Origin: Candidatus Sabulitectum sp.
Lineage (GTDB): Bacteria > Fermentibacterota > Fermentibacteria > Fermentibacterales > JCC-6
DNA length: 64,000 bases
NCBI GenBank assembly: GCA_023145375.1
Contig: JAGLDY010000013.1
Span: 26,868 to 90,867 of the forward strand
Direction: 5' to 3'
The stretch's first letter is position 1. Each line of letters begins with the position of its first letter. Positions 7,906 to 59,177 of the stretch are shown one piece after another. A program made the translations under genes and the position numbers. The notes under the pieces were generated by a model. The model made no database searches, was not told the DNA's origin, and saw only the letters and a program-made list of their open reading frames with translations.

Positions 7906-8502
7906 CTAGAAAGTAGCTTTGATAGCAGCCCATGTGTCAGGTGAAAGTGCAGCAGAATAGTCTGGTGTTCTGATCTCAGCACCATCCGGTGCAGTAATTG
8001 TCAGATCATCCACCCATACAGTAGCTCCCGCTTCCGAGTAAGTTCTTACCTGGATCACAAGTCCGGAGTGTCCACCCTCTACAGTCCAGCTGTACTCTGC
8101 AAGGTCCCAGCCTGTGCCTGGACCGTAATCGCTCTGTCCGCTGGCACTTCCACCGTAGTCGTAGATGTCATCCGGGTCATCGTTCCAGCCGCCCCAGATC
8201 CTGCAGGATGGGGGTGCAGTCGGAGTGGTATCATATCTCCAGAATGAAGCTGTGACCTGATCGCCGTCCGAAAGCCCTACAACCCAGCCCACATAAGCCT
8301 GTGGGGTGCCGGATTCATCATCATCAACCAGTTTAAGAGACTGTGAACCACCGTGGGTCTGCTCGGTGTCTATAGTAGCGATAATATCACCGTAGTTACC
8401 CAGGATGGTCTGTGTACCCTCCCAGCCATAATTCTCTGTGATCTCTGCAAATGCGAACTGTGCCACTGCAAACAGCAGCACAAGAACAAGAATACTCTTC
8501 AT
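7906..8502 (-). CDS. Secreted beta-sandwich (CBM/LamG-like) protein with C-terminal DTWAAIKATF tail
   Basis: Signal peptide MKSILVLVLLFAVAQFAFA. The protein is Gly/Asp/Trp-rich and contains VWVDDLTIT. It ends ...ALSPDTWAAIKATF. Confidence 0.6.
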   Translation of the reverse strand: MKSILVLVLLFAVAQFAFAEITENYGWEGTQTILGNYGDIIATIDTEQTHGGSQSLKLVDDDESGTPQAYVGWVVGLSDGDQVTASFWRYDTTPTAPPSCRIWGGWNDDPDDIYDYGGSASGQSDYGPGTGWDLAEYSWTVEGGHSGLVIQVRTYSEAGATVWVDDLTITAPDGAEIRTPDYSAALSPDTWAAIKATF

Positions 8503-8674
8503 TTATCTCCCTCATTTCTGTTTAAAATCAACATCCCAAAAAACCATTACATATAATACTTGTAATCGAACTTTTCAGCAAGAAACAACCCTAAATATCT
8601 TACCTTACTACTGGGTATTGACTCAAACTGCAAACATGCTTATCTATCTGCTACACCAAGCGAAAGGGGTTTTC

Positions 8675-9457
8675 ATGAAATTTGCTGTGACCATTGTTTC
8701 GTTGTTCCTGTTCGCCGGCATCAGTGTTGCAGACTGGCAGATCGTCGCAACTATCGATGCCCCGGACACGAACATTTCCGGACTGGGTTTTGGAAACGGC
8801 TCCCTGTGGGCTGTTGATAAGGTTACTGAGTTTGCCTACCAGTTAAACCCTGCCACCGGTGCTGTACAGAACTCCTGGTTCGTGGCAGCAAACGGCACAA
8901 GGATACCATCAGGCCTTACTTTCGCTAACAACACCGTTTATATCGCAAGTGCTGCTCCGGCCAATCTCACCGATCCCTACTGCTACCGGTACAACGCCTC
9001 CGGAACATACCTTGGTAACTTTGATCTGGACTGTTGAGGAAGCGATCTCGACCGGGAGGTAACCGGTCTCGCGACAGGAAACAGTAAGATCTACGGCGCA
9101 GGTGTTGATGCTCAGACCATGAAAGAATGTCTTGAGATCTACAGCCTTACCGGCTATATTCAGACAGGTCCCGAGTTTATGGTTGAACTGGGAATCGATT
9201 TCTATGATATCGCCTACTACGATGCGAAATGGTGGTTTGCCTGTAACGATTCATCCTTCCCCATTCGTGCATACAACGGAAGTGGTGTATTAATGGAATC
9301 CATTCCTTCCTCGGCCCTGCCGTCTGCCTATGGTATTACTTTTGATTCTTCAGGCAATCTCTGGGTAAGCAACATAAACACCGATGAGATCTACAGACTT
9401 GAAGATGTTACTGCTCTTACCAGAACGACCTGGGCAACCATCAAAACCACGTATTAG
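8675..9457 (+). CDS. Secreted five-blade NHL/propeller-like protein interrupted by one in-frame TGA (9035-9037); candidate recoding or pseudogene
   Basis: ATG at 8675 has an AAAGGGG SD and gives signal peptide MKFAVTIVSLFLFAGISVA, inside ORF 8438..9037. ORF 9119..9457 is in the same frame, and the 27 codons between the TGA and 9119 are open. Blade-like repeats (ISGLGF.., PSGLTF.., VTGLAT.., FYDIAY.., AYGITF..) span the stop. The downstream part has no signal peptide or SD but ends with TTWATIKTTY. Confidence 0.55.
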
Positions 9458-9480
9458 ATAGTTGAGAACAGATTGATTTG

Positions 9481-9510
9481 AAGACCCCGGGCAACCGGGG
9501 TCTTTTCTTC
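9481..9510 (+). terminator. Rho-independent terminator
   Basis: AAGACCCCGG-gcaa-CCGGGGTCTT is a perfect 10-bp stem followed by TTCTTC. It lies 24 nt after the stop at 9457. Confidence 0.8.
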
Positions 9511-10024
9511 AGTTCCGGAATCGCTCAGGGAGTGAAAAGAACTTATCTCTCTTAACAAGAAACTCATGCTCATAGACAAAGGATGGAACAGAGTCCTCCG
9601 TAAGGACCGCTTCAGGATACAGAAAAACCTCACCGGAGTCTGTGAAACCCGCTGCAAGGAATACGAATTTTTCTCCACCGATGAAATACTGTTCCCGGTC
9701 ATCGTGAATACCCACTCTGAATACTTTCATTATCCTGCCGCTGCCGGAGTCCCAGTACCCTGTAGCATCAACAAGATAACCTGAAAGGGGGGCTTCTATG
9801 GGCATAACTTCGCAGATCTGTATCTCGTCCACCCCGGCTTCGGCCAAGTGAAAGACAGTCGCCCAGCAGGCAGTACTCTCAGAAAATTCCATGGGATCAA
9901 GTTCAGCACTGATCCCGGAACCGGGATGCAGGTAATGCGACAGTATTGAAGAGGAACAGCCTGGGAACAACTCCACGAACTTCATCAGCATAACCAGTAC
10001 AAGACTAGCTGTAGTCACACTCAT
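9509..10024 (-). CDS. Hypothetical lipoprotein
   Basis: 171 aa. The N-terminus LVLVMLMKFVELFPGCSSS has a lipobox-like Cys. I recognise no family. Confidence 0.5.
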   Translation of the reverse strand: MSVTTASLVLVMLMKFVELFPGCSSSILSHYLHPGSGISAELDPMEFSESTACWATVFHLAEAGVDEIQICEVMPIEAPLSGYLVDATGYWDSGSGRIMKVFRVGIHDDREQYFIGGEKFVFLAAGFTDSGEVFLYPEAVLTEDSVPSFVYEHEFLVKRDKFFSLPERFRN

Positions 10025-13929: not shown

Positions 13930-15051
13930 CTAATTAATGACCTGCTCCACGGTAAAGAATCTGGCGAAGTCATCTTCCACGCTAAAAGTGGCAGCCATAC
14001 CGAAGGGTGATACATGAAGACCGGGATAAGACCCTGTACCTGTAGTATCAGCCACAAGAACAACCTGACGGAGCAATTCTCCCTCCTGTGAGATCACATC
14101 CCACACCTCACTGTCTGCAAGGCCTGCCCTTCTTGTCCAGATGTTGTTGTCCCTGTCAATCGCCAGGTCTGAGATGTAGGGCTGCTTCTCCGGATAGGAA
14201 ATTGTCATTACACTGGTTCCTGATTCAGTTGTAAGCGGCAGCGTTATCGGTAAAAAGATCAGTGAATGTATCTCAGAGTCAAAATTCTCCCGGGGCATAC
14301 TTTCCATGGTAACAGTGTTTAAGAGCAGACCCTCCGGTGAAACAACTTCTACAGAGTACTGATCGGAATCATATTCCGCCAGGTAGACATTGCCCGCAGC
14401 ATCAGTTGTAAAGAAAGAATAGAATGGGCGCAGATCTACCTCCGCAGCACCCATGACAAGCTGATGTTCTCTGTAAACAACTCCCTCTTCCCCGGTGTAA
14501 GCATTCAATGAGAATATCCTGTACCCGGACATAAGCTCCTGATCCACAAATTCGGTGACAAGCTCTTTTATTACAACCATTGAATCAGCTCCCGGTGCCA
14601 TTCTTACAGGAATGCTCATATGGGAGTTAAAACTGTCTATATAGCCCATGGACTGGTCCAGAAGAGTCATTCTTCTGGAGTCCAGATCAAACACAAGATA
14701 CTCTCCCCCGGTCAGGCGACACATGCTCCATGGCCGTGAATACTCACCCGGACCACTGCCATGGCGTCCATGAGAGGATATGAATTCACCATCTGCAGCA
14801 AACAGCGATAGTTTGCATCCGATACGATCAAGAACTGCAATTTCACCGGGCACTGCTGCAACTGTGCTTAATGCGCCGAACACATAATTCGTGTCCCCCA
14901 TGAGAACTCCTATTGTATCAGCAAACACAAGTGTGTCCACTGTAAAAGCTGAGTCACTTTCACCGGAGACATCAGGAGGATCACCGCAACCAGAGAGAAG
15001 AACCAGAGCATAGCCTGTTACGCAGAGAGAACATATTCTAAAGAACATCAC
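13930..15051 (-). CDS. 6-bladed beta-propeller lipoprotein (NHL-like), paralogue B
   Basis: YALVLLSGCGD lipobox. IGVLMGDTNYVFGA...GSGPGEYSRPWSM is collinear with IGIEMGDSLYVFGA...GEGPGELSHPKSL of paralogue A. Confidence 0.6.
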   Translation of the reverse strand: MMFFRICSLCVTGYALVLLSGCGDPPDVSGESDSAFTVDTLVFADTIGVLMGDTNYVFGALSTVAAVPGEIAVLDRIGCKLSLFAADGEFISSHGRHGSGPGEYSRPWSMCRLTGGEYLVFDLDSRRMTLLDQSMGYIDSFNSHMSIPVRMAPGADSMVVIKELVTEFVDQELMSGYRIFSLNAYTGEEGVVYREHQLVMGAAEVDLRPFYSFFTTDAAGNVYLAEYDSDQYSVEVVSPEGLLLNTVTMESMPRENFDSEIHSLIFLPITLPLTTESGTSVMTISYPEKQPYISDLAIDRDNNIWTRRAGLADSEVWDVISQEGELLRQVVLVADTTGTGSYPGLHVSPFGMAATFSVEDDFARFFTVEQVIN

Positions 15052-15694
15052 AATCCTTCACGGTTGCACCAGCTGTTCTGGACTTCAACTGATATGTAAG
15101 GAATGGTACCGCAATGTAAACAACGGTGCTCCACGAAGGTGATAGAAAGGCTAGACCTATACCTATAAGAGAGACCACCGGAAGTGTCAGGTTAATTCTG
15201 ATAACCCTGCGAATAGCAGTCTCATCGTATTGATCGGCAATTGCTTCAGGGTGATCGAGAAGCACTCTGCACTGGAGCAGGAAGAAGAGAGAAATAAGGA
15301 AAATATTGATGTGAAAGAACAAGTTTGCAACAAATGTATGACCATGGTAACCCATAAGAGAAGATGAGAATGGGATCAGGCAGACCACCAGCAGACCACC
15401 AAGGTTCGCCCATAGGTGCGGTATACAACTTGATTTTATGTACTTGAATATCTTGAGCTGAATTATCCAGAAGTTTCCAAGGAGAAGAAAGCTCATTACG
15501 TAGGTTCCAAAAAGAGCTGTGATGTCCCCTAAATGATCAAGAATGTCGTTGTCTGAGGTTACTCCATCAAGGTGAGGTAAAGGCAGACTCAGCACCAGCA
15601 GTGTCATCGCAATTGCATATATCCCATCAGTCAGACCCTCCAGACGGTGCAGAGAGAACTGATTTCTCTCACTGCTTCTCCTGCTCACTTTCAT
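15038..15694 (-). CDS. TMEM175/DUF1211-family putative K+ channel
   Basis: RLEGLTDGIYAIAMTLLVL matches the RxxxFSD helix-1 signature region. About six TM segments. Confidence 0.7.
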   Translation of the reverse strand: MKVSRRSSERNQFSLHRLEGLTDGIYAIAMTLLVLSLPLPHLDGVTSDNDILDHLGDITALFGTYVMSFLLLGNFWIIQLKIFKYIKSSCIPHLWANLGGLLVVCLIPFSSSLMGYHGHTFVANLFFHINIFLISLFFLLQCRVLLDHPEAIADQYDETAIRRVIRINLTLPVVSLIGIGLAFLSPSWSTVVYIAVPFLTYQLKSRTAGATVKDCDVL

Positions 15695-15915
15695 ACGGAT
15701 TCCCCTTCATAAAGAATATGCAACAGCAATGAAACTAAAGGACTCTGTTCTCCTTTGCAACACTTCTCAAATAGTATGCACTGAGCTTCGGCGTTCTCTT
15801 CAGGGTTTCAAAGTTAACGAGCTGTCTAAACGTATTCCATACATGTAATATACCGCCGCCGCTCTAGTTCACCTTCGGGAGACCCCATAGTGCTCTGTCT
15901 TCGACCGAATAGATT

Positions 15916-15943
15916 AGCTGCCGGCCCGGAAAGGTCGACAGCT
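15916..15943 (-). terminator. Hairpin downstream of the ECF sigma operon
   Basis: AGCTGCCGGCC-cggaaa-GGTCGACAGCT forms about 10 pairs with one mismatch. It lies 28 nt past the stop at 15971. The U-tract on the minus strand is weak. Confidence 0.4.
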
Positions 15944-15970
15944 AAATAGTAAATCTGTTACAGTACTGGT

Positions 15971-16417
15971 TTATGTGTTTTCTGGTTCTGATTTGGGTTC
16001 ATTCCTGTTCAACCACTTGTCGAAGGCGTCCCGGCCGTAGTCGTTCCAGAACTCACGGAAAGAGTCGTAGTGGTGTTCATGCCCATTCTCGTTGATATGA
16101 ACATGCTTTTCATCACTGTGGTTGTCGTGCCTGCTTCCTCTGTTGACTTTTGTAGAGTGATTGTGGTTACCGAAGAAGATGTGGCCCAGCACCACCAGAC
16201 CAACTGCCTGCCAGTAGGTAACTTCAGGCAGGCTGAAGATTACCGGCATAAGAGCGTTCCAGAGCCACTGGACAACCAGACCGAAAATGATGGCAAGAGC
16301 GGTGACGGCGATAATTCCCAGTATCACAAAGCCCAGCACTACAAATACCTTCTTCAGTGGGTGGCGGGGAGTATCATCCCCGTATGTTTTTCCGAATCTA
16401 AATGCTGAAAAGAGCAT
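15971..16417 (-). CDS. His-rich two-TM membrane protein; putative ECF anti-sigma/sensor partner
   Basis: Overlaps the sigma gene by 20 nt. Two hydrophobic segments. There are nine His in the 37-residue stretch GNHNHSTKVNRGSRHDNHSDEKHVHINENGHEHHYDS. There is no Cys and no HxxxCxxC motif. Confidence 0.5.
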   Translation of the reverse strand: MLFSAFRFGKTYGDDTPRHPLKKVFVVLGFVILGIIAVTALAIIFGLVVQWLWNALMPVIFSLPEVTYWQAVGLVVLGHIFFGNHNHSTKVNRGSRHDNHSDEKHVHINENGHEHHYDSFREFWNDYGRDAFDKWLNRNEPKSEPENT

Positions 16418-16961
16418 TGTGTTCCTCCTTTATGTGTTCGAGTTGTTTCTTTATTGTTTTCAGTCCTCTGTGTTTTCTGGCCAGAAGAGTACCGATTGGG
16501 ATATTCAGTTGTTTTTCAAGTTCTTTGAATGATACTTCGTTGAACTCTGTTTCTATGATCACCTGTTTCTGTTCCCCGGGGAGGTTGCTGATGGCTGTGT
16601 AGATGTGGTTCCTCAGTTGCTCTCTTGCGTATGAGTCTTGTGGTTCATACTTCAGATCAGGTATCATGTCATAAAGACAAAGTTGCTCATGGTTGTGCTC
16701 GTCCAGGGATTGGATCCTGCTGTCCGGTTTCCTGTATTCGTCTATGATCCTGTTTCTCAATGCACGGAAAATGTAAGCAGTAAGGTCAGTTACAGGCTTC
16801 GTCAGGTCCGGACGGTCAAGAAGGTTGAGAATAACATCCTGGACAATATCCTCGCTGTCCATGTGCGCAGCATCATCAAGTCTTGTTCTAACGAAATTCA
16901 CCAGCTTCTTGTGATTTCTCTCCCAGAACTCTGCGAGTGATGTTTTTCCGCTTTTAGTCAT
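16398..16961 (-). CDS. ECF-type RNA polymerase sigma-70 factor
   Basis: Region 2-like DIVQDVILNLL...AYIFRALRNRIIDEYR. Region 4 LPGEQKQVIIETEFNEVSFKELEKQLNIPIGTLLARKHRGLKTIKK. Confidence 0.8.
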   Translation of the reverse strand: MTKSGKTSLAEFWERNHKKLVNFVRTRLDDAAHMDSEDIVQDVILNLLDRPDLTKPVTDLTAYIFRALRNRIIDEYRKPDSRIQSLDEHNHEQLCLYDMIPDLKYEPQDSYAREQLRNHIYTAISNLPGEQKQVIIETEFNEVSFKELEKQLNIPIGTLLARKHRGLKTIKKQLEHIKEEHNALFSI

Positions 16962-17161
16962 TCATTTTCTCCTCTCTTCAGTAGTGAAGACGAGAAAGAA
17001 GGAAAAATATTGCAAGCTGTGTGTGAAGCATTTCACCTTTCTGCTCTTCAGTCAATAAGTCTCTTGATAACCGGCTTCGATCAATGTAACAGGGCATTTC
17101 TGTGGTATTTGTTGCGTAGATTGCAGCGTTTGTTGTATATCAGTGTGTGGGAGGTGAATTC

Positions 17162-19687
17162 ATGAAGAAAAAGCTGTCCACCATTCTGATGATCACTGCT
17201 ACTGTCTTTGTTGTTGGTTTCTGCAGTACCTACATGGCCAGGGAATTCACAAAAGCAGACAACTTCTCCCGTATGAGTGACATGTGGAGTCTATTCCTCT
17301 TCAATGATACCACTGAGCATGCTATGTTCCATGAAGTCAACCTGGACGATTTTGTAACTGCTCCCTACCCTGCCCGTGGTGATTCGCTGATCTCTGTGGG
17401 AGGATTGATCGCCTCCGAGAACAACTACTTCAGTCTGTTTGGAACCGAGACTCCCAGGGGGGAAGAGTACGAAATAGTATTCTCCCATGAAGATTCCCTT
17501 TACACCACAACCATTGCCACACACACAATTCCCACAGCACTGAAAGCTCAGGTATGGCTGATGATGATACTCCGGACACTGATAGTGTTCGGGTTGATCG
17601 CTGTAAGTTTGTGGGGATTCATTAAGCAGCCATACTCTTCAGCTGTACTTACACTGTCTCTGTTCTGCTTCACAGTGGCATTGCAGTTCACGGCTACAAT
17701 CGGGTCTATCGCTGATGCATACGCCGGTTTTACTCTACCCATGGCGCTTCTCGCCAGTGTCTATATACTATCCGCCTTTACAGCCCCTCTTTTTCTGAAA
17801 CTGCAACTGCTTTTCCCTGCCAGAAATCCTGTATACGATGAACACAGGATCATTTACAACCTGCTGATCTTTCTGCCTGTTGTAGTGGTTACCCTTCTGG
17901 TGCTCTTCCTGAAATTGGAACGATTCATCTGGGGTAATGCTATTTCATCTGTTATGCTTGTGCTTGGATATATTCTTCTTGTTCGCAACTATAAAAAAGC
18001 GAATGTATTCCTTGAAAAGCGTCAGACCAGGCTGGTTATGCTGGGGGCAGGCCCCGGTTTGATCATATACGTTCTATTCGGCTGGTTGCTACAGTTCTCA
18101 GGAGATAGTTTTTCAGATCTTCCAGTGGTCACAAGGATGCTCATCGGCAACATCCTCTTTCTAATCGTTCTCACCATTCCTGTTTCTCTTGGTTATGCTT
18201 TCGGAAAGTACAGGCTGCTTCATGTTGAAGGGCGTTTGAAGCGTGGAACCAGGTTCTTTGCTGTGAATTTTCTTCTTCTGGCTCTGTTTGCCGGTATCAT
18301 CTGGGCTGTTGGTAAATTTCTACTTGAAAAGATCGGAGTTAACTCACAGACACCGATATTGATACTTGGGATCGTACTCGCTTTCTTCTTCATGAGCCTT
18401 CAAAGACAGATCAGACACAGGATCGAAGAACACTTCTATCCTGAACGGGCCAAACTTCGGGTTTTGATGAAAGATTTCCTTACTTCAAGTATGGCTCGCA
18501 CTGAAAGCGCTAAATTCTGGGAAGAGCTTGAGGAAAAACTTGCAGACGGTCTTTCCGCAGAGAAGATCTACCCGGTTCTCAGGGTCAACGGTAAGGAATT
18601 CTTTACTGTGGACTTGGACGAACCTGCTCCCTTCTCCCCCGGTGACGCATTTATTCGCAGACTGGAATCAAAAGACAACCCGCTGCTCTTTGATGAGATG
18701 ATAGCCAGTGGTAAGATCGTACTGTCTTCAGAACAGAGAGAGTGGTTCATTGAACGAAAGAGCGCCATTCTGCTCCCCCTGGTAACAACATCCGGATTGT
18801 TAGGCTTCCTCGTGATAAGCAGTAAGACCAATGGAGAAGATTTTACAGCAGAGGAACTTGACCTCCTGGAGAGTTTCTCCACGCAGACAGCAATTGTCGC
18901 GGAGAATCTAGAACTTCTCGGGGAGAGGCTGGAGAAGGAAAAACTTGAAGAACAGCTGAAAGTTGCACGAAACATCCAGCAGGGTCTTCTTCCAGGAAAT
19001 ATTCCAGCGGTTCAAGGTATTGAGATGTCAGCTCTCATACGATTCTGCCTGGATGTGGCTGGAGATTACTACGATATCATACCCCTTGAAGACGGGCGGG
19101 TGGTCCTTTCTATAGGAGATGTCTCCGGCAAAGGTGTTGGCGCAGCACTGCTGATGGCTAACCTCCAGGCTTCCCTTCGGACTGCACAGGCAATGGGGGC
19201 AAGTCTGTCTGAATCTGCTGAGAGGATAAACAAGCTTGTTTTTGAAAACACACCTTCCGATATGTTCATAACCTTTTTCATGATCTGTATCGACCCTGTG
19301 AAGAAACGTCTCCGCTATGTAAATGCCGGTCACAACCCGCCATTCCTGGTCGAGAACGATGGTCATGAGAAAATGCTCACAAAAGGCGGGTTACTGTTCG
19401 GTGTTGTAAAAAATGCTCTATATGAAGAGGGTGAAGTATCCCTGAATGATGGGGACATGATCCTGATGTACACCGATGGTGTCTCCGAAGCCATGGACAG
19501 CAATGAAGAAGAATTCGGTGAGAAGCATATTGCTCATATTGTTGCCAGGAACCGGGAACTGTCACTGGATGAACTTCTTGCCCTTATTGAAAAAGAAGTC
19601 AGCATTTTCCACGGGTCGAGCTCTTACATGGATGACTTCACTCTGCTTGCTGCAAGGATAAAACCTGTAAGAATTGATCTTTCATAA
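17162..19687 (+). CDS. Polytopic membrane sensor with GAF-like region and PP2C/SpoIIE serine phosphatase domain
   Basis: ATG at 17162 follows GGGAGG (the ORF track GTG is at 17147). Many TM helices in the N-terminal half. The C-terminus has ARNIQQGLLP, GDYYD, GDVSGKGVGAALLMA, NAGHNPP and LYTDGVSEA. Confidence 0.8.
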   Translation: MKKKLSTILMITATVFVVGFCSTYMAREFTKADNFSRMSDMWSLFLFNDTTEHAMFHEVNLDDFVTAPYPARGDSLISVGGLIASENNYFSLFGTETPRGEEYEIVFSHEDSLYTTTIATHTIPTALKAQVWLMMILRTLIVFGLIAVSLWGFIKQPYSSAVLTLSLFCFTVALQFTATIGSIADAYAGFTLPMALLASVYILSAFTAPLFLKLQLLFPARNPVYDEHRIIYNLLIFLPVVVVTLLVLFLKLERFIWGNAISSVMLVLGYILLVRNYKKANVFLEKRQTRLVMLGAGPGLIIYVLFGWLLQFSGDSFSDLPVVTRMLIGNILFLIVLTIPVSLGYAFGKYRLLHVEGRLKRGTRFFAVNFLLLALFAGIIWAVGKFLLEKIGVNSQTPILILGIVLAFFFMSLQRQIRHRIEEHFYPERAKLRVLMKDFLTSSMARTESAKFWEELEEKLADGLSAEKIYPVLRVNGKEFFTVDLDEPAPFSPGDAFIRRLESKDNPLLFDEMIASGKIVLSSEQREWFIERKSAILLPLVTTSGLLGFLVISSKTNGEDFTAEELDLLESFSTQTAIVAENLELLGERLEKEKLEEQLKVARNIQQGLLPGNIPAVQGIEMSALIRFCLDVAGDYYDIIPLEDGRVVLSIGDVSGKGVGAALLMANLQASLRTAQAMGASLSESAERINKLVFENTPSDMFITFFMICIDPVKKRLRYVNAGHNPPFLVENDGHEKMLTKGGLLFGVVKNALYEEGEVSLNDGDMILMYTDGVSEAMDSNEEEFGEKHIAHIVARNRELSLDELLALIEKEVSIFHGSSSYMDDFTLLAARIKPVRIDLS

Positions 19688-22396: not shown

Positions 22397-23677
22397 TCAG
22401 GAGATCGCTACGCGGCCCTCGAGATGAACTTTCATGCAGTTGATCATGTTCATGTGATCAACTGTTCCAGCCATTTCACGGACGGAATGCATTGAGAGCA
22501 TGGGGTTGCCCACATCAACAGTGGGAATGCCTGTGCCGGTTGCAGCTATGGGCCCCAGAGTACCACCGCTTTTGCCATCTGCACGAGAAACGAATTTCTG
22601 AATGGGGCTCTCTGCAAGTTCAGCACACTTCATGAAGTAGGCGGAAGTTCTGGCTGTTGAAGCGTAACTGCCCCCTGCGGACATTTTGATAGCAGGGCCC
22701 TTGTTGAGCTGAGGTTTTGAGAGTTTGCTGTGTTTTCCTGCCCAGCCGGGGTGGATGGCATGAACGCAGTCAGCACTAACATTCATGCTTCGGCTGCAGG
22801 CTCTGAAGAAATTGGCTCTTGTACCGGAAATGCGTTCAAGAACCCTTTCCATGAATGGGGAGGCGGCTCCGTTAACAGTTCTGGAGCCTATCTCCTCATT
22901 GTCAAAGAGAAAAACAACAGCAGTGGGATCAGCTGATCCTGCTTCTGTGATGGCAGCCAGTGCAGCATGGGTGCTGGCCTGATTATCTATACCTGCTGAT
23001 ATGAGGTAGTTATTGTCTATCCCGTTTAACGCAGGTAGCTGGATGTCGAAAACCTCTCCGGAAAAATCGATGATCTGATCAACCTTGATCCCCACTGATT
23101 TCGCGATGATCACCTTGAGTCTGTCAAAATCATTCTCCTCATCACCGAATACAAGAAGAAGTTGCTCCTCTGCATTCGCCTTGAAGCCATCCTTGTTTGC
23201 CGTACGATTGAGGTGAATAGCAGGTGAAGGGAATCTCAGGATAGGTTCGTCTATTCTGAAGGTTTTTGTGGTAAGATCGTTGTTCTCCATGAAGGACACA
23301 CTTCCGGCAAGCCCCAGATCCCGGTCAAACCAGGTGGCAACAGTGGGACCACCGTATATCTCAACACCGAGTGTTGAAAGCCCTTCTGAGTAGGCATAAG
23401 GTTCAGGTTTCAGTCTGAAGCCGGGGGAATCTGTGTGGGTACCAATTATTCTGAAACCTGCTTCTGCCGCAGGTTTGACGCCGACGATAAAAGCAGCCAG
23501 AGTTGAAGCAGAATCGATCACATAACACTTGTCGCCGATGCTGAGCTTCCATTCATCTACCATATGAATCTCTTTGAAACCCTCTTTGTCGAGCAGTTCT
23601 GATGCAGTCTGCACACAGTGAGAAGCTGTAGGGGAATTCTTCAAGAATTCCATCAGTCCCTTTATATCCCTGTCCAT
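22397..23677 (-). CDS. M18 family (aspartyl) aminopeptidase
   Basis: The N-terminus FLKNSPTASHCV..., HTDSPGFRLKP and the C-terminal MLSMHSVREM are typical of M18. The start overlaps the upstream gene stop by 1 nt. Confidence 0.8.
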   Translation of the reverse strand: MDRDIKGLMEFLKNSPTASHCVQTASELLDKEGFKEIHMVDEWKLSIGDKCYVIDSASTLAAFIVGVKPAAEAGFRIIGTHTDSPGFRLKPEPYAYSEGLSTLGVEIYGGPTVATWFDRDLGLAGSVSFMENNDLTTKTFRIDEPILRFPSPAIHLNRTANKDGFKANAEEQLLLVFGDEENDFDRLKVIIAKSVGIKVDQIIDFSGEVFDIQLPALNGIDNNYLISAGIDNQASTHAALAAITEAGSADPTAVVFLFDNEEIGSRTVNGAASPFMERVLERISGTRANFFRACSRSMNVSADCVHAIHPGWAGKHSKLSKPQLNKGPAIKMSAGGSYASTARTSAYFMKCAELAESPIQKFVSRADGKSGGTLGPIAATGTGIPTVDVGNPMLSMHSVREMAGTVDHMNMINCMKVHLEGRVAIS

Positions 23678-27822: not shown

Positions 27823-27846
27823 TCCCGGTTCACAGTTGAACCGGGA
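27823..27846 (-). promoter_or_regulatory. Perfect 10-bp hairpin whose 3' arm contains the SD of the 1379-aa gene (or terminator of the upstream lipoprotein gene)
   Basis: The minus-strand RNA reads UCCCGGUUCA-acug-UGAACCGGGA-GUUUGU-AUG. The GGGAG SD is paired in the stem and the AUG follows 6 nt later. Confidence 0.45.
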
Positions 27847-50251: not shown

Positions 50252-50338
50252 GCCGTGGTGGCGGAATTGGCAGACGCGCTAGGTTCAGGACCTAGTGAGG
50301 GCAACCTTGTGGGGGTTCAAGTCCCCCCCACGGTACCA
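50252..50338 (+). tRNA. tRNA-Leu (anticodon CAG), CCA encoded
   Basis: 87 nt: GCCGTGG-TG-GCGGAATTGGCAGACGC... The anticodon arm is CTAGG-TTCAGGA-CCTAG. There is a long variable arm, a T arm GGGGG-TTCAAGT-CCCCC, and the acceptor 3' strand CCACGGT-A-CCA. It closely resembles E. coli tRNA-Leu(CAG) as I recall it. Confidence 0.9.
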
Positions 50339-53145: not shown

Positions 53146-53805
53146 ATGTCAGGCAGAGAAACAATCAGCAGTCTCATCGAGTTACTTAAGAGACTTTACC
53201 CGGAGGCTGAGTGTCAGCTGAGATACCAGGGTATTCCTGAAAGGCTTGTTATTGCCACCATACTGTCTGCGCAGACAACTGATGCAGCTGTAAACAAAGC
53301 CACCCCTGTCCTTTGGAAAAAATACAGCACAATGAAAGACCTTGCTTCAGCAGACAGATCTCACGTGGAAGATATCCTGAAGACCATAGGCCTGTTCAGG
53401 AACAAGACAGGATTCATCATAAAAGCTGCCGGTTTCATGGCAGAAAAAGGTCTTCCTGATACGATAGATGAACTTATCAAAATGCCCGGAGTGGGCAGAA
53501 AAACAGCAAATGTGATCATGGGTGAGATCTTCGGACAGCCATCCATAACCGTTGACACCCATGTTAAGCGCTTGTCCGCAAGACTGGGGCTTACTGACCA
53601 CACAGACCCGGGTAAGATAGAGATGGACCTGAAAAAGATCATTCCGGAAGAGGAACAGACCATGTTCTCTCACAGGCTGATCACCCACGGCAGAAATATC
53701 TGCAAAGCAAGAAAACCCCTCTGCTCCGTCTGCTCACTTAGCAGCTTCTGTCCTTACTGTAAAAAGTGGAGTCCGCAAAAGCGGACTCCACTTAAAACAA
53801 CTTAA
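53146..53805 (+). CDS. nth: Endonuclease III
   Basis: HhH-GPD LIKMPGVGRKTANVIMGE. The Fe-S motif is C-x6-C-x2-C-x5-C (CKARKPLCSVCSLSSFC). Confidence 0.9.
   Translation: MSGRETISSLIELLKRLYPEAECQLRYQGIPERLVIATILSAQTTDAAVNKATPVLWKKYSTMKDLASADRSHVEDILKTIGLFRNKTGFIIKAAGFMAEKGLPDTIDELIKMPGVGRKTANVIMGEIFGQPSITVDTHVKRLSARLGLTDHTDPGKIEMDLKKIIPEEEQTMFSHRLITHGRNICKARKPLCSVCSLSSFCPYCKKWSPQKRTPLKTT
53761..53793 (-). terminator. Rho-independent terminator of the 53817..54464 gene, embedded in the 3' end of nth
   Basis: AAGTGGAGTCCGC-aaaa-GCGGACTCCACTT is a 13-bp perfect stem. On the minus strand it is followed by a T-run. Confidence 0.7.
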
Positions 53806-53816
53806 CTCGACCAGTC

Positions 53817-54464
53817 TTAGTCCATATCGGAAAGATCTACACTCCAGTAGAAGCCATCCTCATCCACCCATACTTCCCAGATGGTGTATACATCATCATC
53901 CTCGTCCACGCACTTGAAATCGTAGTAGTCACCTGCGGGAACGTAGAATGTAAGAGTCTCACCAGGATCAAGAAGATCTGAACCCAGACGATCGTCACCC
54001 CATGGAGAATCACTGGGATCACCGTAGACATACCAGATAGTCCAGCTGCCCAGGTCGTTCTCTATTGTGACAGGAGCCATTCCTCCACCTGAAGAACCAA
54101 CGCTTGTGCTGCTTCCCCAGTCCTGCTCACCAAGATCGTCCAGACTTACATACAGATCAAGGGTTCCGCTGATATCAACATTCCAGAAGATATACTCATC
54201 ATCGTCCTCGTCTATGATCTTAATATCGTATGTACCGTTGTTCAGGCGGAAAGATTTGCTGTAACCCGCGCTGATAGTCTCGCTGGACCCAAGCATATCA
54301 TCACCCCAGGATTCTGCGGATGAAGGTGAGATATAGACATAGAAGAAACTGTAGTTTCCAGTATCATTAGTGATCTCAAGACGCCCTGCAAAGGATGCGG
54401 CAACGCACACCATTACAAGGATAAAAAGTGCCCTTTTCAAAATAACCTCCCTGTTTTCCAGCAA
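53817..54464 (-). CDS. Secreted protein with two copies of a recurrent ~85-aa domain
   Basis: Signal-anchor ALFILVMVCVAASFAG. Repeat 1 is LEITNDTGNYSFFYVYI...WGDDMLG...YDIKIIDEDDDEY. Repeat 2 is VTIENDLGSWTIWYVYG...WGDDRLG...YDFKCVDEDDDVY. Confidence 0.6.
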   Translation of the reverse strand: MLENREVILKRALFILVMVCVAASFAGRLEITNDTGNYSFFYVYISPSSAESWGDDMLGSSETISAGYSKSFRLNNGTYDIKIIDEDDDEYIFWNVDISGTLDLYVSLDDLGEQDWGSSTSVGSSGGGMAPVTIENDLGSWTIWYVYGDPSDSPWGDDRLGSDLLDPGETLTFYVPAGDYYDFKCVDEDDDVYTIWEVWVDEDGFYWSVDLSDMD

Positions 54465-54623
54465 CTATGCACTGACCCACGATCGAATAGAATACCCGAT
54501 CACTTGTCTGATAATTCTTAAAGAGAGCACCGATGTCAATGCCCTGCTGTAAATCTACACCAGACAATTGTGCAGTATTCCATAGTATATTAGAGGCTTG
54601 GCAGGTACTGAAAGAGGAAAACG

Positions 54624-55643
54624 ATGAAAGTTCTTTATACTTCAACTGATACAGGTGTTGACAAAGCAGTGGGAAGGATACTGGACTCCTTTCCATGGCG
54701 TGAGTTTCTGCCTGAGGGGCGACCTGTGCTAGTTAAGGTAAATCTTACCTGGGACTACCTCCGGCCCGGTGTGAACACTTCTCCATGGGTTGTTGAAGCA
54801 CTGTGCAGACGATTAAAAGAGCATACCGGACAGATCTATCTGGGTGAATCCAGTCAAATACTTGTAGATGCTTCAAAAGCACTCAGGGTCCAGCGGATGG
54901 ATGCAGTGGTTGAAAGACAGGGACTTATCTGGCATAATTTCAGCGACAATCCATGGAAGGAAGTTACCGTCAATGGTCTTACTTTCGGTATTCCTGATAT
55001 CTGTACGAAAATGCCTGTGATCTCTGTCCCTGTGGTTAAGACCCATTACCGCTCTGTGATCTCTGTGGCATTGAAACATCTTTACGGATGCCTTAATGAC
55101 GGCAGACATAATTACCACTACAGACTTTCAGATTACGTTGTAGCGGTGAACAAAGCAATTCCAGTTAAATTCATTCTAGCAGACGGCACAGTAAGTCTGG
55201 AGGGTTCAGGACCAAAACCGGGGATCCCGAAACAGACCGATTTTCTTGCGCTTTCAACAGATCCGGTAGCTCTGGATCATTCTGTTGCAAAGGTCATGGG
55301 ACTTGACCCCGGAAAAATAGACAGCATTCAAAAGGGAAACGGAGAGGTGGGAACATGCGCTGACGTGGAGAACGTTTGCATCTCCCCGCTGACAGAGGTA
55401 CCATCATTCAACTTCAAGCCTGCAGAACCCAACTTCGTTGCAAAGGTGGAAAAAAAGCTCCGCGGAAAGAAAAAGGAGAAAGAGATACCAGGGGATGGCC
55501 CCTTTATAGGCGTAATGAAAGCCGGTGCAAAGCGCTGGTACAATCTATCCTACTCCATATTCGGCCAGAAAAGAGAAGCTGAAGAGTGGAAAAAAAGTCT
55601 TCCCTACGGCCCTCAGTGGCTTGGTGAACCGGAGGAAAAATGA
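54624..55643 (+). CDS. DUF362 domain protein
   Basis: PVLVKVNLTW...NTSPWVVEALCRRL...IYLGES, VVKTHYRSVISVALKHLYGC and ILADGTVSLEGSGP fit my recollection of the DUF362 pattern. Confidence 0.65.
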   Translation: MKVLYTSTDTGVDKAVGRILDSFPWREFLPEGRPVLVKVNLTWDYLRPGVNTSPWVVEALCRRLKEHTGQIYLGESSQILVDASKALRVQRMDAVVERQGLIWHNFSDNPWKEVTVNGLTFGIPDICTKMPVISVPVVKTHYRSVISVALKHLYGCLNDGRHNYHYRLSDYVVAVNKAIPVKFILADGTVSLEGSGPKPGIPKQTDFLALSTDPVALDHSVAKVMGLDPGKIDSIQKGNGEVGTCADVENVCISPLTEVPSFNFKPAEPNFVAKVEKKLRGKKKEKEIPGDGPFIGVMKAGAKRWYNLSYSIFGQKREAEEWKKSLPYGPQWLGEPEEK

Positions 55644-56692
55644 AGCTTGCCGGACAGATAAAAATGGGCATGGGAGCACTCAGATGCCGACTTGGCGCAA
55701 AGATCCCGCTGAATGTAATGGTTTCCATCACGGATCACTGCCCCAGCAGATGTTCCTACTGCCAGATCCCGTCCAGATGCAGAGAAGACCTTTCCACAGA
55801 GCAGTGGAAGGATATTTTCCGCCAGATCGCGGAAGCAGGTACAATGCGGATCGGTGTATGGGGTGGCGAACCACTTGCAAGAAGAGACATTGTTGAACTC
55901 TGTGCTTATGCAAGAGAACTGGGAATGTATGTCAGCCTTGATTCCAACGGTTACATGATACCTTCGAGAGCTGAGATACTTGACAATATAGACCACCTGG
56001 TCCTCTCCTACGATGGCCCTAAGGAGGCGCACGACAGGAACCGGGAGGAAGGAAGCTGGGAAAAGGTTACAGCTGCCTTTGAAGTTGCCTCAGGAAAGGT
56101 CAGACTCTGGTCTATCACCGTGCTCACAAAGAACAACATCCACCTTTTAGACGAGATAATGGAAACTGCGGAAAAATACGGCGTAATGACTACATTCCAG
56201 ACACTTCATCACAACGACACGCTTGGTGGAAATACTTCTGACATGATGCCCTCTGCAGATGAGTATTCTAAAGCTTTCCAAAAGCTCCTTCAGATGAAGA
56301 GGGCAGGAGCACCTATTCTTCTCAGCAACAGTTATCTCAGTGCAGCCTCCCGGTGGCAGGACTATTCAAAAACAAGAATAATGGATCGATTTTATGGCAC
56401 ATCATGCAAAGCTGGTAGAGCTTACTGCAACATTGATGTGGATGGTACTGTTTACCCGTGCTCCCTTCTTATCGGGGAATACGACGGTGCAAAGAACGCA
56501 CTTGACGGGGGGTTCAAGGAGGCTTTCCTTCACCTGAGCGAGAAAGAACTGCCATGCAACGCGTGTACCGCCTCCTGCTATCCTGAATACAACTACCTTT
56601 ATTCCCTTAATATTCCCGTTGCTCTGGACTGGGTAAAAGGGGTAAAAAGAACCGACGATCTTCTTCGCAAAATGAAGAGAACTGGAGAGTAA
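55640..56692 (+). CDS. Radical SAM enzyme with C-terminal SPASM/twitch-type Cys cluster
   Basis: ATGA overlap with the DUF362 gene. CPSRCSYC is CxxxCxxC. WGGEPLARRD is present. The C-terminus reads CKAGRAYCNIDVDGTVYPC...CNACTASC. Confidence 0.8.
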   Translation: MKLAGQIKMGMGALRCRLGAKIPLNVMVSITDHCPSRCSYCQIPSRCREDLSTEQWKDIFRQIAEAGTMRIGVWGGEPLARRDIVELCAYARELGMYVSLDSNGYMIPSRAEILDNIDHLVLSYDGPKEAHDRNREEGSWEKVTAAFEVASGKVRLWSITVLTKNNIHLLDEIMETAEKYGVMTTFQTLHHNDTLGGNTSDMMPSADEYSKAFQKLLQMKRAGAPILLSNSYLSAASRWQDYSKTRIMDRFYGTSCKAGRAYCNIDVDGTVYPCSLLIGEYDGAKNALDGGFKEAFLHLSEKELPCNACTASCYPEYNYLYSLNIPVALDWVKGVKRTDDLLRKMKRTGE

Positions 56693-56693
56693 A

Positions 56694-58157
56694 ATGCCGG
56701 CTCTGCCCGAGTACAGAACCAGGATACTGCTGGAAAACCACGAAGTACCCCTGGTTCCTGCAGTATTCCACAATACAATGCCCGAGATCCTTCCAGAACC
56801 TGTGGTCTACCTGAAGGCTCAGATCCCAGGTGCCACAAGCCGAGCGGGAAGAGGCCTGGTAAGACGGGCATCTACAAGAGAAGAGATATCAAACGGCCTT
56901 AAAGAACTTCTTTCTGAAGAAAACTGCCAGGGTGTTCTGGTTGCGGAAGCAGTGGATATAAAGAAGGAATACTACGCCGCATGCCTTCTTGATCTGGGAG
57001 ACGGTGAGACTCTGCCAGGAGGCGTTCTTCTCTTCAGCGCCGAAGGCGGAACAGGCATAGAGGGAAGAACCGGATCACTGTTGAGAATTCGTTTCAGCCT
57101 TCTAAACCCGCCATCTGCTGCCGAACTGGAGAGGAAGCTTGAAGAGACATCCAATTCTCAACAGTTGGCTGACTTCCTGGAGAAAATGATAGCTACCTTT
57201 ATCTCGTACAAACTCACTGTTCTTGAGACGAACCCCATTGCAGTCCTTGAAGACGGCTCCCATCTGGCAGTGGACTGTCGTGCGGAATTTGAAAAACACG
57301 CTGTTTCAAAAAAGAATGTACATCTGTTTGAGCTCCCTGAAAACTCCGTTGATGACAGCACGCAATTGGAGAAGGTGATCGAGGCCATTAATGCAGCAGA
57401 CCCTGCAGGAACAGGTTTTTTCCGGGCGTCTCGAGAAAAGGTGCCTGATGGTACCATTGCAGTTGCCACAAACCTCTGTGGAGGAGGGGGCAAAATGCTG
57501 TGGGAAATGACAACAGGTGGCAGGGATGACATTTTTTCTCTTAACGAAAGCGATACATCCGGTGGGCTCAGCGGTTTCAAGAGCTACAGGATCCTAAGGG
57601 TCATCATGAGTCAACCTGAAGCACAGGTTCTCATTCTAACCGGTAGCGGAATGGCATTCCAGAATCAGTTCCACCTGGCCTCTGCTGTCTGGAAGGCTCT
57701 AAGGGAATCCCCATCACCCCTTCCCTGTCTGCTCCGTTTCGGCGGTACCGATCAGGAAAAAGCAATGGAACTCATGGATACCGTTTCAGAAGATCTTCCT
57801 GTGAAGGTGAAAACCTTTAAACCTGAAATATTCCCAAATGCAATGGTTGAACATCTCAGTGAGACAGCCACCAGGGAGAGAGTAAAACAAAAGTTCATAC
57901 CGGAACCCGGTGAACTTGCATTCACTGTGGAAACACCACCTGCAAGATTTGTCTACCACCCGGATAAGAATCCTGAAAGGGTTGAACCTCTATGCATCAA
58001 AGAATGTCCCACAGGCTTCCTGAAGTGGAGCGGCGGCAGGATAACCACGGACCCTGATGCAAAATGTATAGGGTGCCTGGTCTGTGAGACCGTTTCTCTT
58101 CTTCAGGGCAACGGAGAGCTGACCATAGAGCTTGATCTTCCCGGGGAGGTACTGTAA
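56694..58157 (+). CDS. Succinyl-CoA synthetase beta-like ATP-grasp subunit with extra C-terminal ferredoxin-like Cys motif
   Basis: LPEYRTRILLENHEVP, VYLKAQIPGATSRAGRGLV, VLVAEAVDIKKEYY and LLFSAEGGTGIE are collinear with SucC. The tail is CIKECP...CIGCLVCETV. Confidence 0.65.
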   Translation: MPALPEYRTRILLENHEVPLVPAVFHNTMPEILPEPVVYLKAQIPGATSRAGRGLVRRASTREEISNGLKELLSEENCQGVLVAEAVDIKKEYYAACLLDLGDGETLPGGVLLFSAEGGTGIEGRTGSLLRIRFSLLNPPSAAELERKLEETSNSQQLADFLEKMIATFISYKLTVLETNPIAVLEDGSHLAVDCRAEFEKHAVSKKNVHLFELPENSVDDSTQLEKVIEAINAADPAGTGFFRASREKVPDGTIAVATNLCGGGGKMLWEMTTGGRDDIFSLNESDTSGGLSGFKSYRILRVIMSQPEAQVLILTGSGMAFQNQFHLASAVWKALRESPSPLPCLLRFGGTDQEKAMELMDTVSEDLPVKVKTFKPEIFPNAMVEHLSETATRERVKQKFIPEPGELAFTVETPPARFVYHPDKNPERVEPLCIKECPTGFLKWSGGRITTDPDAKCIGCLVCETVSLLQGNGELTIELDLPGEVL

Positions 58158-59119
58158 TGGCCGGAATACTCAAATATCTGTGTGACATAGACACTCCGAA
58201 AGTGCTGGTCTTCGGAATAACAGGGAGACAGGGAAAGAGCAGATCCAGGCTGATGAGAGGTTTTGGAACAGAGATAGTTGCTGGCTGCACGCCGGGAAAG
58301 GGTGGTCAGGAGGTAGACGATGTACCAGTCTACAACACCGCTATAGAAGCACTGGCTGCACACCCCGAGGTAAACAGCGCTGTTTTCTTCGTCCCGGCTG
58401 GTGCCATAGCAAAAGCTGCATTTGATGCCATGGATGCAGGGATCAAATTTCTCGTTCTTACCGCTGACGGAGTTGCAACTCAGGATTCCATCAGGATAAA
58501 AGAAAAAGCATTTGAGAGCGGGGCGAAATGCCTCGGGCCAAACACCGTAGGTATGCTGGACACAGACGGGTATCTCTTTGGTCTTATAGGAGGCAAGGCC
58601 TCCTGGGCAAAAAAGAACTATCTGCCCGGTAAAGTAGGTGTTATCAGCCGTTCCGGTGGGCTCAGTCAGCTTCTGGCAGCTTTTCACTGCCGCAGGGACC
58701 TGCCGGGCCCAAGACCTGACGGTTCCTTCGGCCCACTGTGGGGAGAGAACTTTCCCGGCCTCTCAGCGGTTCTCTGCGTTGGAGGAGACCCTGTTCCAGG
58801 CCTCACCCTTCTTGATGCTGCAAGAGCCTTTGAGGCTGATCCAAGGACAGAAGTAATGGCTGTCTACGCTGAGACAGGAACTACACAGGAGAATGATCTG
58901 GCCAGGGCAATAGAGAACGGAGATATATCTAAACCTGTTGTGGTATTCCTGGGAGGAAAATTCACGGAAGCAGGAGTGGCGCAGAGCCATGCCGGTGCCA
59001 TGATCAGAAATGAGAGTGAAAGCTACAAAGCTAAAAAGGAAGCTCTGGAAAAAGCTGGAGCGATAGTAGTAGACAGACCTGATTCTGTATTTGCCGCAAC
59101 AGCGGAATTCCTTAGATAG
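58157..59119 (+). CDS. Succinyl-CoA synthetase alpha-like CoA-binding subunit
   Basis: 1-nt overlap with the upstream gene. GITGRQG, TPGKGG, GPNTVG, ISRSGG, VGGDP and the phosphohistidine loop QSHAGAM are present. A ~25-aa insertion (CRRDLPGPRPDGSFGPLWGENFPG) distinguishes it from E. coli SucD as I recall it. Confidence 0.75.
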   Translation: MAGILKYLCDIDTPKVLVFGITGRQGKSRSRLMRGFGTEIVAGCTPGKGGQEVDDVPVYNTAIEALAAHPEVNSAVFFVPAGAIAKAAFDAMDAGIKFLVLTADGVATQDSIRIKEKAFESGAKCLGPNTVGMLDTDGYLFGLIGGKASWAKKNYLPGKVGVISRSGGLSQLLAAFHCRRDLPGPRPDGSFGPLWGENFPGLSAVLCVGGDPVPGLTLLDAARAFEADPRTEVMAVYAETGTTQENDLARAIENGDISKPVVVFLGGKFTEAGVAQSHAGAMIRNESESYKAKKEALEKAGAIVVDRPDSVFAATAEFLR

Positions 59120-59135
59120 CATTCCAGCTGTCATG

Positions 59136-59159
59136 AAGGGCACGGTCTCCCGTGCCCTT
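59136..59159 (+). terminator. Stem-loop terminator of the DUF362-rSAM-SCS-like operon
   Basis: AAGGGCACGG-tctc-CCGTGCCCTT is a perfect 10-bp stem 17 nt after the stop. The T-tract is poor. Confidence 0.6.
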
Positions 59160-59177
59160 CTGATCCAGTGTCCTATG

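Follow-up and report, generated by a model that had tools for sequence, protein, structure and literature searches.

A putative citrate-type CoA ligase with a ferredoxin-like domain in a compact four-gene unit of Candidatus Sabulitectum sp.

Candidatus Sabulitectum sp., a member of the Fermentibacterota, carries on contig JAGLDY010000013.1 four closely packed genes, which encode a DUF362 protein, a radical S-adenosylmethionine (rSAM) enzyme and the beta and alpha subunits of a ligase resembling succinyl-CoA synthetase (SCS). We have analysed these genes within a 64-kb stretch of that contig (hereafter the window) and in the genomes of relatives. In the reading that we prefer, and to which we give an even chance, they form a compact transcription unit in which three separable modules are joined; one of these, the beta/alpha pair, is an acid-CoA ligase (ADP-forming) from the lineage that comprises citryl-CoA synthetase (CCS) and ATP-citrate lyase (ACL), with a likely citrate-type substrate. 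The preliminary description of this DNA, made from the window alone, had called the pair divergent and SCS-like; it is no unknown kind of CoA ligase and falls within the CCS/ACL radiation. The Fe-S-bearing pair is a new variant of the CCS/ACL kind, for which no earlier description was found in the searchable literature.

The ligase pair and its ferredoxin-like domain

The beta subunit is composed of an ATP-grasp domain, a divergent ligase domain and a C-terminal ferredoxin-like domain. The earlier view that its ATP-grasp landmarks are kept while its second half has diverged was borne out, with ATP-grasp_2 matched at just 39 bits and no Pfam match in the second half. The same is true of the alpha subunit, said to keep the SHAGA loop and the CoA-binding motifs, at which a QSHAGAMI phosphohistidine loop and matches to CoA_binding (73 bits) and Succ_CoA_lig were found; these features are not discriminating, because the QSHAGA loop and CoA_binding are common to SCS, CCS and ACL. 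A bona fide SCS was rejected as the identity of the pair, as both subunits score far under the NCBIfam equivalog cutoffs (beta 64.7 bits versus 370 for NF001913, alpha 197.3 versus 336 for NF004230), in agreement with the first judgement of a divergent pair.

By phmmer, beta reaches 113–138 bits against a ferredoxin-bearing CCS-like family versus 36 bits against bona fide SucC, and its hhalign alignment to that family has 100% probability over 485 columns, the ferredoxin-like domain included. Moreover, it shares with ACL-type betas an insertion and a substrate loop longer by one residue (GSGMAFQNQ versus GGVANFT), both of which are lacking in SCS-beta. An exhaustive profile search returned the window's beta family as one tight cluster. 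The residues lining the loops of the ligase domain are invariant in members from the Fermentibacterota and from other phyla, so the substrate is expected to be the same in both. For the alpha subunit, scores on one scale are 201–235 bits to the alphas of loci ordered beta (with ferredoxin-like domain)–alpha–citryl-CoA lyase (CCL), compared with 184 for the best solved SCS-alpha, 139.5 for E. coli SucD, 120 for Hydrogenobacter thermophilus CcsB and 91–101 for AclA-type alpha regions. Among solved structures SCS is nominally the top match of both subunits by sequence, with CCS and ACL close behind, and the beta fold matches 6hxq_B with an E-value of 9.5e-21.

The C-terminal Fe-S motif of beta had been overlooked in the preliminary description. 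A cysteine followed by proline (C438-P) and then C458xxC461xxC464 are invariant in 37 family members, and the isolated tail of beta just passes the Pfam Fer4 cutoff (21.3 bits versus 21.1), with weak matches to ferredoxin and PsaC. In the sister family, i.e. the nearest full-length relatives of beta, which are SucC-like proteins of 490–541 aa ending in a ferredoxin-like domain, a full 2x[4Fe-4S] motif stands at the equivalent position. Judged from these residues, the domain of the window's beta most likely binds one [4Fe-4S] cluster, which might act in redox or oxygen sensing or might be structural. Nothing in the searchable literature was found to link citryl-CoA synthetase to a ferredoxin-like or 4Fe-4S domain, nor was the ferredoxin-like domain of the sister family found mentioned there for CCS or ACL.

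Gene neighbourhoods of the pair in other phyla

Relatives were collected by a beta-anchored scan with one genome per species (55 loci) and by an rSAM-anchored scan (80 loci), and the window proteins were located in each scanned locus to score their presence or absence; names such as L001 designate the relatives' loci. Homologues of beta with 70–93% identity belong to Candidatus Sabulitectum and other Fermentibacteraceae metagenome-assembled genomes (MAGs), and those with 49–60% identity to Aegiribacteria, Ca. Fermentibacter daniensis and other Fermentibacterota. In addition, 12 loci of Planctomycetota/Phycisphaerae, Myxococcota, Riflebacteria, Desulfobacterales and some MAGs with doubtful labels carry the pair with no rSAM or DUF362 gene within 8 kb, and none of their assemblies is among the rSAM matches listed (80 loci). 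Beta in these 12 loci is 55–60% identical to that of the window and retains all family-invariant residues. The diversity of beta is greater among deep Fermentibacterota lineages (47–61% identity) than among the other phyla (60–88%), which suggests that the pair spread outward from the Fermentibacterota as a two-gene cassette. Several of the pair-carrying “binchicken” MAGs (L024, L037, L057) are labelled uncultured Enterobacterales, a label made doubtful by their ACL-type lyase, archaeal-type aconitases and GC content of 67–69%.

In 8/12 of the non-Fermentibacterota loci beta is preceded within 2.5 kb by a gene for a 404-aa protein, and in 6 of them immediately. This protein is matched best by citryl-CoA lyase models (180 bits versus 117 for citrate synthase II) and is 50–65% identical to the C-terminal citrate-synthase-homology module of AclA from canonical archaeal and bacterial ACL loci. 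Those canonical loci have the same two aconitase-family neighbours, at 61–78% identity. From the identity to the AclA module and the shared aconitase neighbours it follows that the stand-alone lyase module and the pair together occupy the aclB-aclA place. The 404-aa gene looks like a fission product of aclA in loci where the Fe-S beta/alpha cassette has apparently taken the place of aclB and of the alpha part. The stand-alone lyase at L001:8691-9905 and its counterparts in L022, L025, L026, L033 and L054 are 77–83% identical across Myxococcota and Planctomycetota MAGs.

Beside the stand-alone lyase, the neighbours of the pair in other phyla include aconitases and isocitrate dehydrogenase (IDH). 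An ADP-forming acetyl-CoA synthetase (ACD) is encoded between lyase and pair in L037 and L045, and in a locus of Desulfobacterales (L060) the pair has PrpF on one side and a CitE/CitD fusion with CitF on the other, under a PrpR-like activator. In one Riflebacteria locus (L003), two genes on the minus strand encode a 496-aa protein without family that is divergent from the pair (8086-9576) and a 1195-aa protein in which an aminotransferase is fused to a phosphoenolpyruvate carboxylase of archaeal type, which is oxaloacetate-related (14575-18162). In a lake-sediment MAG (L150:3511-6339) the genes behind the same lyase-type gene encode a bona fide SucC, which at 473 bits exceeds the cutoff, and SucD, hence adjacency of a lyase with canonical SCS-like subunits also exists.

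The sister family is large, with more than 536 matches in species-representative genomes of Anaerolineae, Calditrichia, Marinimicrobia, Zixibacteria, Ignavibacteria and others. Its gene order is beta (with ferredoxin-like domain)–alpha–citryl-CoA lyase in 63 of the best 80 loci (L211-L290, for instance L229:4902-8438), often with aconitase and IDH coming after the lyase. Its lyase passes the NCBIfam cutoff (272 versus 245), and at L256:5001-8236 the alpha subunit is fused to the lyase, as in AclA. Members of this family also match the Pfam family Citrate_bind (PF16114) at 26–28 bits.

In the superfamily to which these ligases belong, ATP phosphorylates a histidine of alpha, the phosphoryl group passes to a carboxylate in the C-terminal domain of beta and the thioester forms as CoA displaces the phosphate; this reversible reaction is able to yield ATP. 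The substrate of the pair is most likely citrate or a close tricarboxylate or hydroxy-acid, as we infer from the relationships and neighbourhoods given above. ATP bound by the ATP-grasp domain of beta would phosphorylate the histidine of the QSHAGA loop of alpha, the phosphoryl group would pass to a citrate-like carboxylate bound in the C-terminal domain of beta, and CoA would form the thioester, which may then be passed on to an enzyme of the citryl-CoA-lyase type if its gene lies close by. The [4Fe-4S] cluster of beta would be regulatory or structural. The rSAM enzyme (SPASM/twitch-type) is retained irrespective of the ligase, and the DUF362 protein would be coupled to it as an optional accessory.

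Organisation of the unit and separability of its modules

The four open reading frames (ORFs) and their flanking signals are given in Table 1. The ORF check gave the coordinates and junctions reported before: DUF362 and rSAM genes overlap by 4 nt, rSAM and beta are separated by 1 nt and beta and alpha overlap by 1 nt. Across loci, the 1-nt overlap of beta and alpha recurs in 43/53, the 4-nt overlap of DUF362 and rSAM in 25/29, and a gap of at most 46 nt between rSAM and beta in 42/42 of the assessable pair-bearing Fermentibacterota loci. About 40 Fermentibacterota genomes share this tight packing and, considering that recurrence, it is not due to chance. The heptamer GTATATT is retained about 35–40 nt 5′ of the DUF362 ATG in L007-L015, L021, L039 and L055, and together with the purine-rich ribosome-binding site (RBS) it is likely the promoter and translation start of the unit. 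The 10-bp hairpin described at 59136-59159 is present, as part of a perfect stem of 11 bp. In the relatives L007-L011, L014 and L015 a GC hairpin stands at the equivalent place 3′ of alpha, in most cases with a T-run behind it; as this T-run is lacking in the window, the hairpin is missed by a simple terminator scan. It is among only 5 distinct perfect hairpins of at least 10 bp in the 64 kb. Most likely, then, the four genes are a compact unit with a single transcript, and the coupled operon of the preliminary description gains the backing of the conserved upstream element, the junctions, the terminator hairpin and the recurrent packing.

Table 1. Features of the four-gene unit and its surroundings in the window
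Feature	Position	Strand	Remarks
Secreted repeat protein	53817-54464	-	215 aa, signal-peptide-like N-terminus, two internal repeats YVYISPSSAESWGDDMLGS / YVYGDPSDSPWGDDRLGS
Cys-rich small ORF	54533-54649	+	38 aa, N-terminal MSMPCCKSTPDNC, overlaps DUF362 start
Upstream element GTATATT (54585-54591) and purine-rich RBS AGAGGA (54613-54618)	54585-54622	+	nucleotide conservation
DUF362 protein	54624-55643	+	339 aa
Radical SAM enzyme	55640-56692	+	350 aa
Beta (large) ligase subunit	56694-58157	+	487 aa
Codons of putative single [4Fe-4S] ligands C438(P), C458, C461, C464	58005-58085	+	conservation, Fer4 match
Alpha (small) ligase subunit	58157-59119	+	320 aa
GC-rich hairpin, likely terminator	59135-59160	+	11-bp perfect stem, loop TCTC, -20.8 kcal/mol

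Within this unit, beta and alpha were always found together, and an rSAM gene lies directly 5′ of beta in all 42 assessable loci. The rSAM gene is nevertheless separable from the pair: in 15 genomes, including that of Ca. Sabulitectum silens JCC-6, it occupies its usual syntenic site (EndoIII-hyp215-[..]-M1 peptidase-PRK) without the pair. No remnants of beta or alpha were detected in these 15 genomes even at E<=0.1, nor are their assemblies among the beta matches. Among the assessable pair-bearing Fermentibacterota loci, 29 have the DUF362 gene, 9 lack it and 1 has a remnant of it, and 4 loci have the gene without the pair. In one Ca. Sabulitectum MAG a 99-aa DUF362 fragment lies 5′ of rSAM (L010:6356-6652, the same as L062:5410-5706), which looks like an ongoing loss of the gene. 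As rSAM, DUF362 and the pair each occur apart, the unit is a mosaic of three separable modules. By these distributions the rSAM gene is the constant gene of the syntenic site, and the DUF362 gene is an optional accessory predicted to be translationally coupled to it.

An obligatory four-gene pathway is therefore not supported by the comparison of loci. Against the joint pathway of rSAM, CoA ligase and DUF362 put forward in the preliminary description stand the 15 genomes with rSAM but no pair, the 9 loci that lack DUF362 and the 12 loci of other phyla that have the pair only; in fact, the four genes largely fail to co-occur outside the phylum, and partly so inside it. A looser functional link between rSAM and ligase is possible inside the phylum, where the adjacency of rSAM and beta is unbroken.

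The DUF362 label of the first gene product proved sound, with PF04015 matched at 114.4 bits versus a cutoff of 24, and no PDB relative was found for it by sequence search. DUF362 is placed in one Pfam clan with LarA/DUF2088 (CL0471), members of which act on 2-hydroxy acids (PMC11770544).

Likewise, the second gene product is a radical SAM protein as first labelled, matching PF04055 at 72.5 bits and having an invariant CxxxCxxC (C34/C38/C41). The more specific label SPASM holds for the fold class and not for the motif: in the predicted model (pLDDT 90) the top fold matches are SkfB, BlsE, CteB, PqqE, SuiB and anSME (TM 0.54–0.64), yet Pfam SPASM (PF13186) is not detected and there are 6 invariant auxiliary cysteines (C256, C263, C274, C306, C309, C313) versus the 7 of a complete SPASM motif. 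Based on the model, the enzyme is of SPASM/twitch type and has no RRE domain. Classification with HMMs, which had been proposed for it, places it in no characterised NCBIfam family; its top match, TIGR03961 (PTO1314), reaches 101 bits versus a cutoff of 306, it is under every curated family cutoff and its database annotations are generic only. Homologues of 38–51% identity occur in conserved clusters of Acidobacteriota, Verrucomicrobiota, Planctomycetota and others, where they are accompanied by an FAD amine-oxidase/desaturase-like protein, a Zn-ribbon (HMPTM-type) rSAM, a B12-rSAM, POR subunits, Glycos_transf_4 and PMT_2; no CoA ligases were found beside these homologues among the loci examined. 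For instance, L122:4086-11309 comprises a B12-rSAM, the homologue of the window's rSAM, the FAD amine-oxidase/desaturase-like protein, the HMPTM zinc-ribbon rSAM and a protein of about 530 aa without family, and L291:3353-15041 has the same multi-rSAM cluster with POR subunits, Glycos_transf_4, PMT_2 and Peptidase_U32. From their gene content, such clusters look like an uncharacterised system of envelope or lipid modification.

The preliminary description had also argued against a ribosomally synthesised and post-translationally modified peptide (RiPP), as no precursor-like small ORF was visible upstream. The sole candidate is the 38-aa Cys-rich ORF of Table 1, and it is not conserved: stop codons interrupt it in L007, L008 and L012 and its cysteines are not conserved in relatives, which rules it out as a RiPP precursor. 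As the reading frame is not maintained in the relatives, this ORF is probably spurious, and the conserved nucleotides beneath it look like a promoter element, because GTATATT is kept while the ORF decays. No RiPP recognition element (RRE) domain is found in the rSAM protein, the structure model of which begins the rSAM core at about residue 25.

The syntenic surroundings across the Fermentibacterota consist of endonuclease III, the secreted 215-aa repeat protein, an M1 peptidase with a type IX secretion system (T9SS) tail and a uridine-kinase-like (PRK) protein. Together with the identities of the beta homologues, this synteny places the window in the Fermentibacterota (FCB group). The repeat protein, a frequent divergent neighbour of rSAM, has no Pfam or NCBIfam match. 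The stretch 3′ of alpha is variable across the phylum, with DUF5128 proteins and N_methyl pilins in other genomes. In Aegiribacteria MLS_C (L004:12494-15095) a gene for an aldo-keto reductase-4Fe-4S fusion and a B12-binding radical SAM gene are located between alpha and the M1 peptidase. The remaining perfect hairpins of at least 10 bp in the window (9481-9504, 22437-22464, 27823-27846 and 53765-53792) are presumably terminators, and the sole RNA gene detected in it is a tRNA-Leu(CAG) at 50252-50338. A scan of the window for sigma-70 promoters and intrinsic terminators gave counts no higher than in shuffled sequence and is thus uninformative for an FCB-type genome.

Competing readings and comparison with known systems

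Several observations weigh against a ligase of the CCS/ACL lineage acting on citrate. Within about 8–10 kb of any Fermentibacterota locus there is no citryl-CoA lyase, CitE, aconitase or IDH gene, and tblastn of the window with citrate-synthase-homology (citryl-CoA-lyase-type), aconitase and IDH queries found none; likewise no Fermentibacterota are among the best 80 of the 151 matches of the lyase scan. Hyd24-12 genomes have been reported without 8/10 key enzymes of the tricarboxylic acid (TCA) cycle (PMC5030696), and a citrate-cleaving role would have no visible partner there. In the subunits themselves, Citrate_bind has no match on the window's beta or on P0078 and the N-F-T residues are not kept, the fold search with the beta model scores SCS, CCS and ACL alike with no discrimination between them, and alpha still resembles SCS-alpha. 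The gap between rSAM and beta, short in 42/42 loci across 49–93% beta identity, could mean a functional link rather than inertia. Finally, all relatives compared with the window are MAGs, the genome scans were pattern-based and took at most 80 loci each, and the trees are simple neighbour-joining ones.

In a rival reading the pair is simply the SCS of its lineage, serving for instance a route through methylmalonyl-CoA (succinate/propionate) or a remaining branch of the TCA cycle; in other phyla it would lie in TCA gene clusters, and the Fe-S domain would be a decoration of the lineage. This is compatible with SCS as the best solved-structure match of both subunits, with the JGI annotation of family members as succinyl-CoA synthetase beta subunit and with the bona fide SucCD of L150 next to the same lyase-type gene. 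Moreover, propionate oxidation via methylmalonyl-CoA and succinate has been described for Aegiribacteria MLS_C (PMC4846661). In the searchable literature nothing was found on Fermentibacteria together with succinyl-CoA synthetase. Yet the equivalog scores of both subunits are far too low, beta scores 36 bits to bona fide SucC against 113–138 to the ferredoxin-bearing CCS-like betas, it has ACL/CCS-type indels that SCS lacks, the alpha of the sister family can be fused to citryl-CoA lyase, and the CitEF/PrpF and ACD contexts indicate citrate and not succinate. We therefore regard an SCS as unlikely.

The neighbours of the pair could also tell its function, as in the pathway of the preliminary description, where DUF362, rSAM and ligase act together, an acid being activated as acyl-CoA or acyl-phosphate before radical Fe-S chemistry; the ferredoxin-like domain of beta might then supply electrons to the rSAM enzyme. 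The tight and unbroken order of rSAM and beta in 42/42 pair-bearing Fermentibacterota genomes, set against the variable region 3′ of alpha, agrees with it, as do the coupled junctions, with just one promoter-like element and one terminator, and the membership of DUF362 in the clan of LarA (2-hydroxy acids), given that the ligase plausibly acts on hydroxy-acids. We find it rather improbable nonetheless: 15 genomes retain rSAM but have no pair, the pair persists at 55–60% identity with its invariant residues intact in 12 genomes without a detectable rSAM orthologue or DUF362, DUF362 is dispensable, and rSAM homologues elsewhere never adjoin CoA ligases. An rSAM enzyme acting instead as an anSME-like maturase, on beta, alpha or the secreted repeat protein, would fit its fold near anSME, SkfB and CteB, its length of about 350 aa without an RRE domain and the frequent divergent position of the 215-aa repeat protein. 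However, the orthologues of beta and alpha function in phyla without rSAM and rSAM persists where they are missing, phyletic grounds which rule out the pair as its target, while the repeat protein lies 4–5 kb away in several Aegiribacteria loci and no target motif was identified; maturation of any of these proteins by the rSAM enzyme is thus highly improbable.

A ligase of the CCS/ACL lineage within a mosaic unit remains our preferred reading, and it can be extended, in what we consider a speculative and rather doubtful step, to an unrecognised citrate-activating class (CCS or split ATP-citrate lyase) with an Fe-S ferredoxin domain on beta. The window's family would be its single-cluster offshoot, which arose in the Fermentibacterota, spread as a cassette displacing aclB and the alpha part of aclA, and was wired in the Fermentibacterota to an rSAM/DUF362 operon for redox-gated acid activation. 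The reductive TCA cycle is diagnosed by its citrate cleavage step, through ATP-citrate lyase or through CCS with CCL; some anaerobes use this step in reverse to gain ATP, and it is surveyed with marker genes that depend on known aclAB/ccsAB models. In one survey ccl was detected far more often than ccsA/ccsB (bioRxiv 10.64898/2026.09.02.748891). Divergent synthetase subunits bearing Fe-S domains could account for this excess, and a ligase with such a domain would point to citrate cleavage being controlled by redox state or oxygen. Moreover, a pathway of CoA ligase, rSAM and DUF362 should not be assumed from adjacency alone.

Compared with known systems, the DUF362 protein has the clan CL0471 in common with LarA/DUF2088, with no sign at this locus of the nickel-pincer cofactor or of racemase chemistry. 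The rSAM enzyme is like PqqE, anSME, BlsE, SkfB, CteB and SuiB in its CxxxCxxC core, Cys-rich C-terminal extension and fold, but it has no RRE, precursor peptide or Pfam SPASM match, and its relatives cluster with an FAD desaturase-like protein, Zn-ribbon rSAM, B12-rSAM and glycosyltransferases. With SucC/SucD the pair has the same architecture over the first ~400 aa of beta and the entire alpha, and differs in the divergent ligase domain and the Fe-S domain of beta and in the gene context of its orthologues, which is that of citrate cleavage and not of succinate. Like CcsA/CcsB of Hydrogenobacter thermophilus (PDB 6HXQ), it is predicted to be a two-subunit ADP-forming ligase with a phosphohistidine alpha, and its orthologues and the sister family adjoin citryl-CoA-lyase-type genes, aconitase and IDH; unlike that enzyme, the window's beta has a C-terminal Fe-S domain, the sequence similarity is low (beta profile 36.5 bits, alpha 120 bits) and the Fermentibacterota loci are without a nearby lyase gene. 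In comparison with ATP-citrate lyase (AclB/AclA; human ACLY), the pair is not fused to a lyase module, the N-F-T citrate signature is absent and alpha is just 27–29% identical to AclA alpha regions, whereas the C-terminal domain of beta has the insertions and loop length of the ACL type and in other phyla the pair adjoins a stand-alone AclA citrate-synthase-homology module, at the canonical aclB-aclA position.

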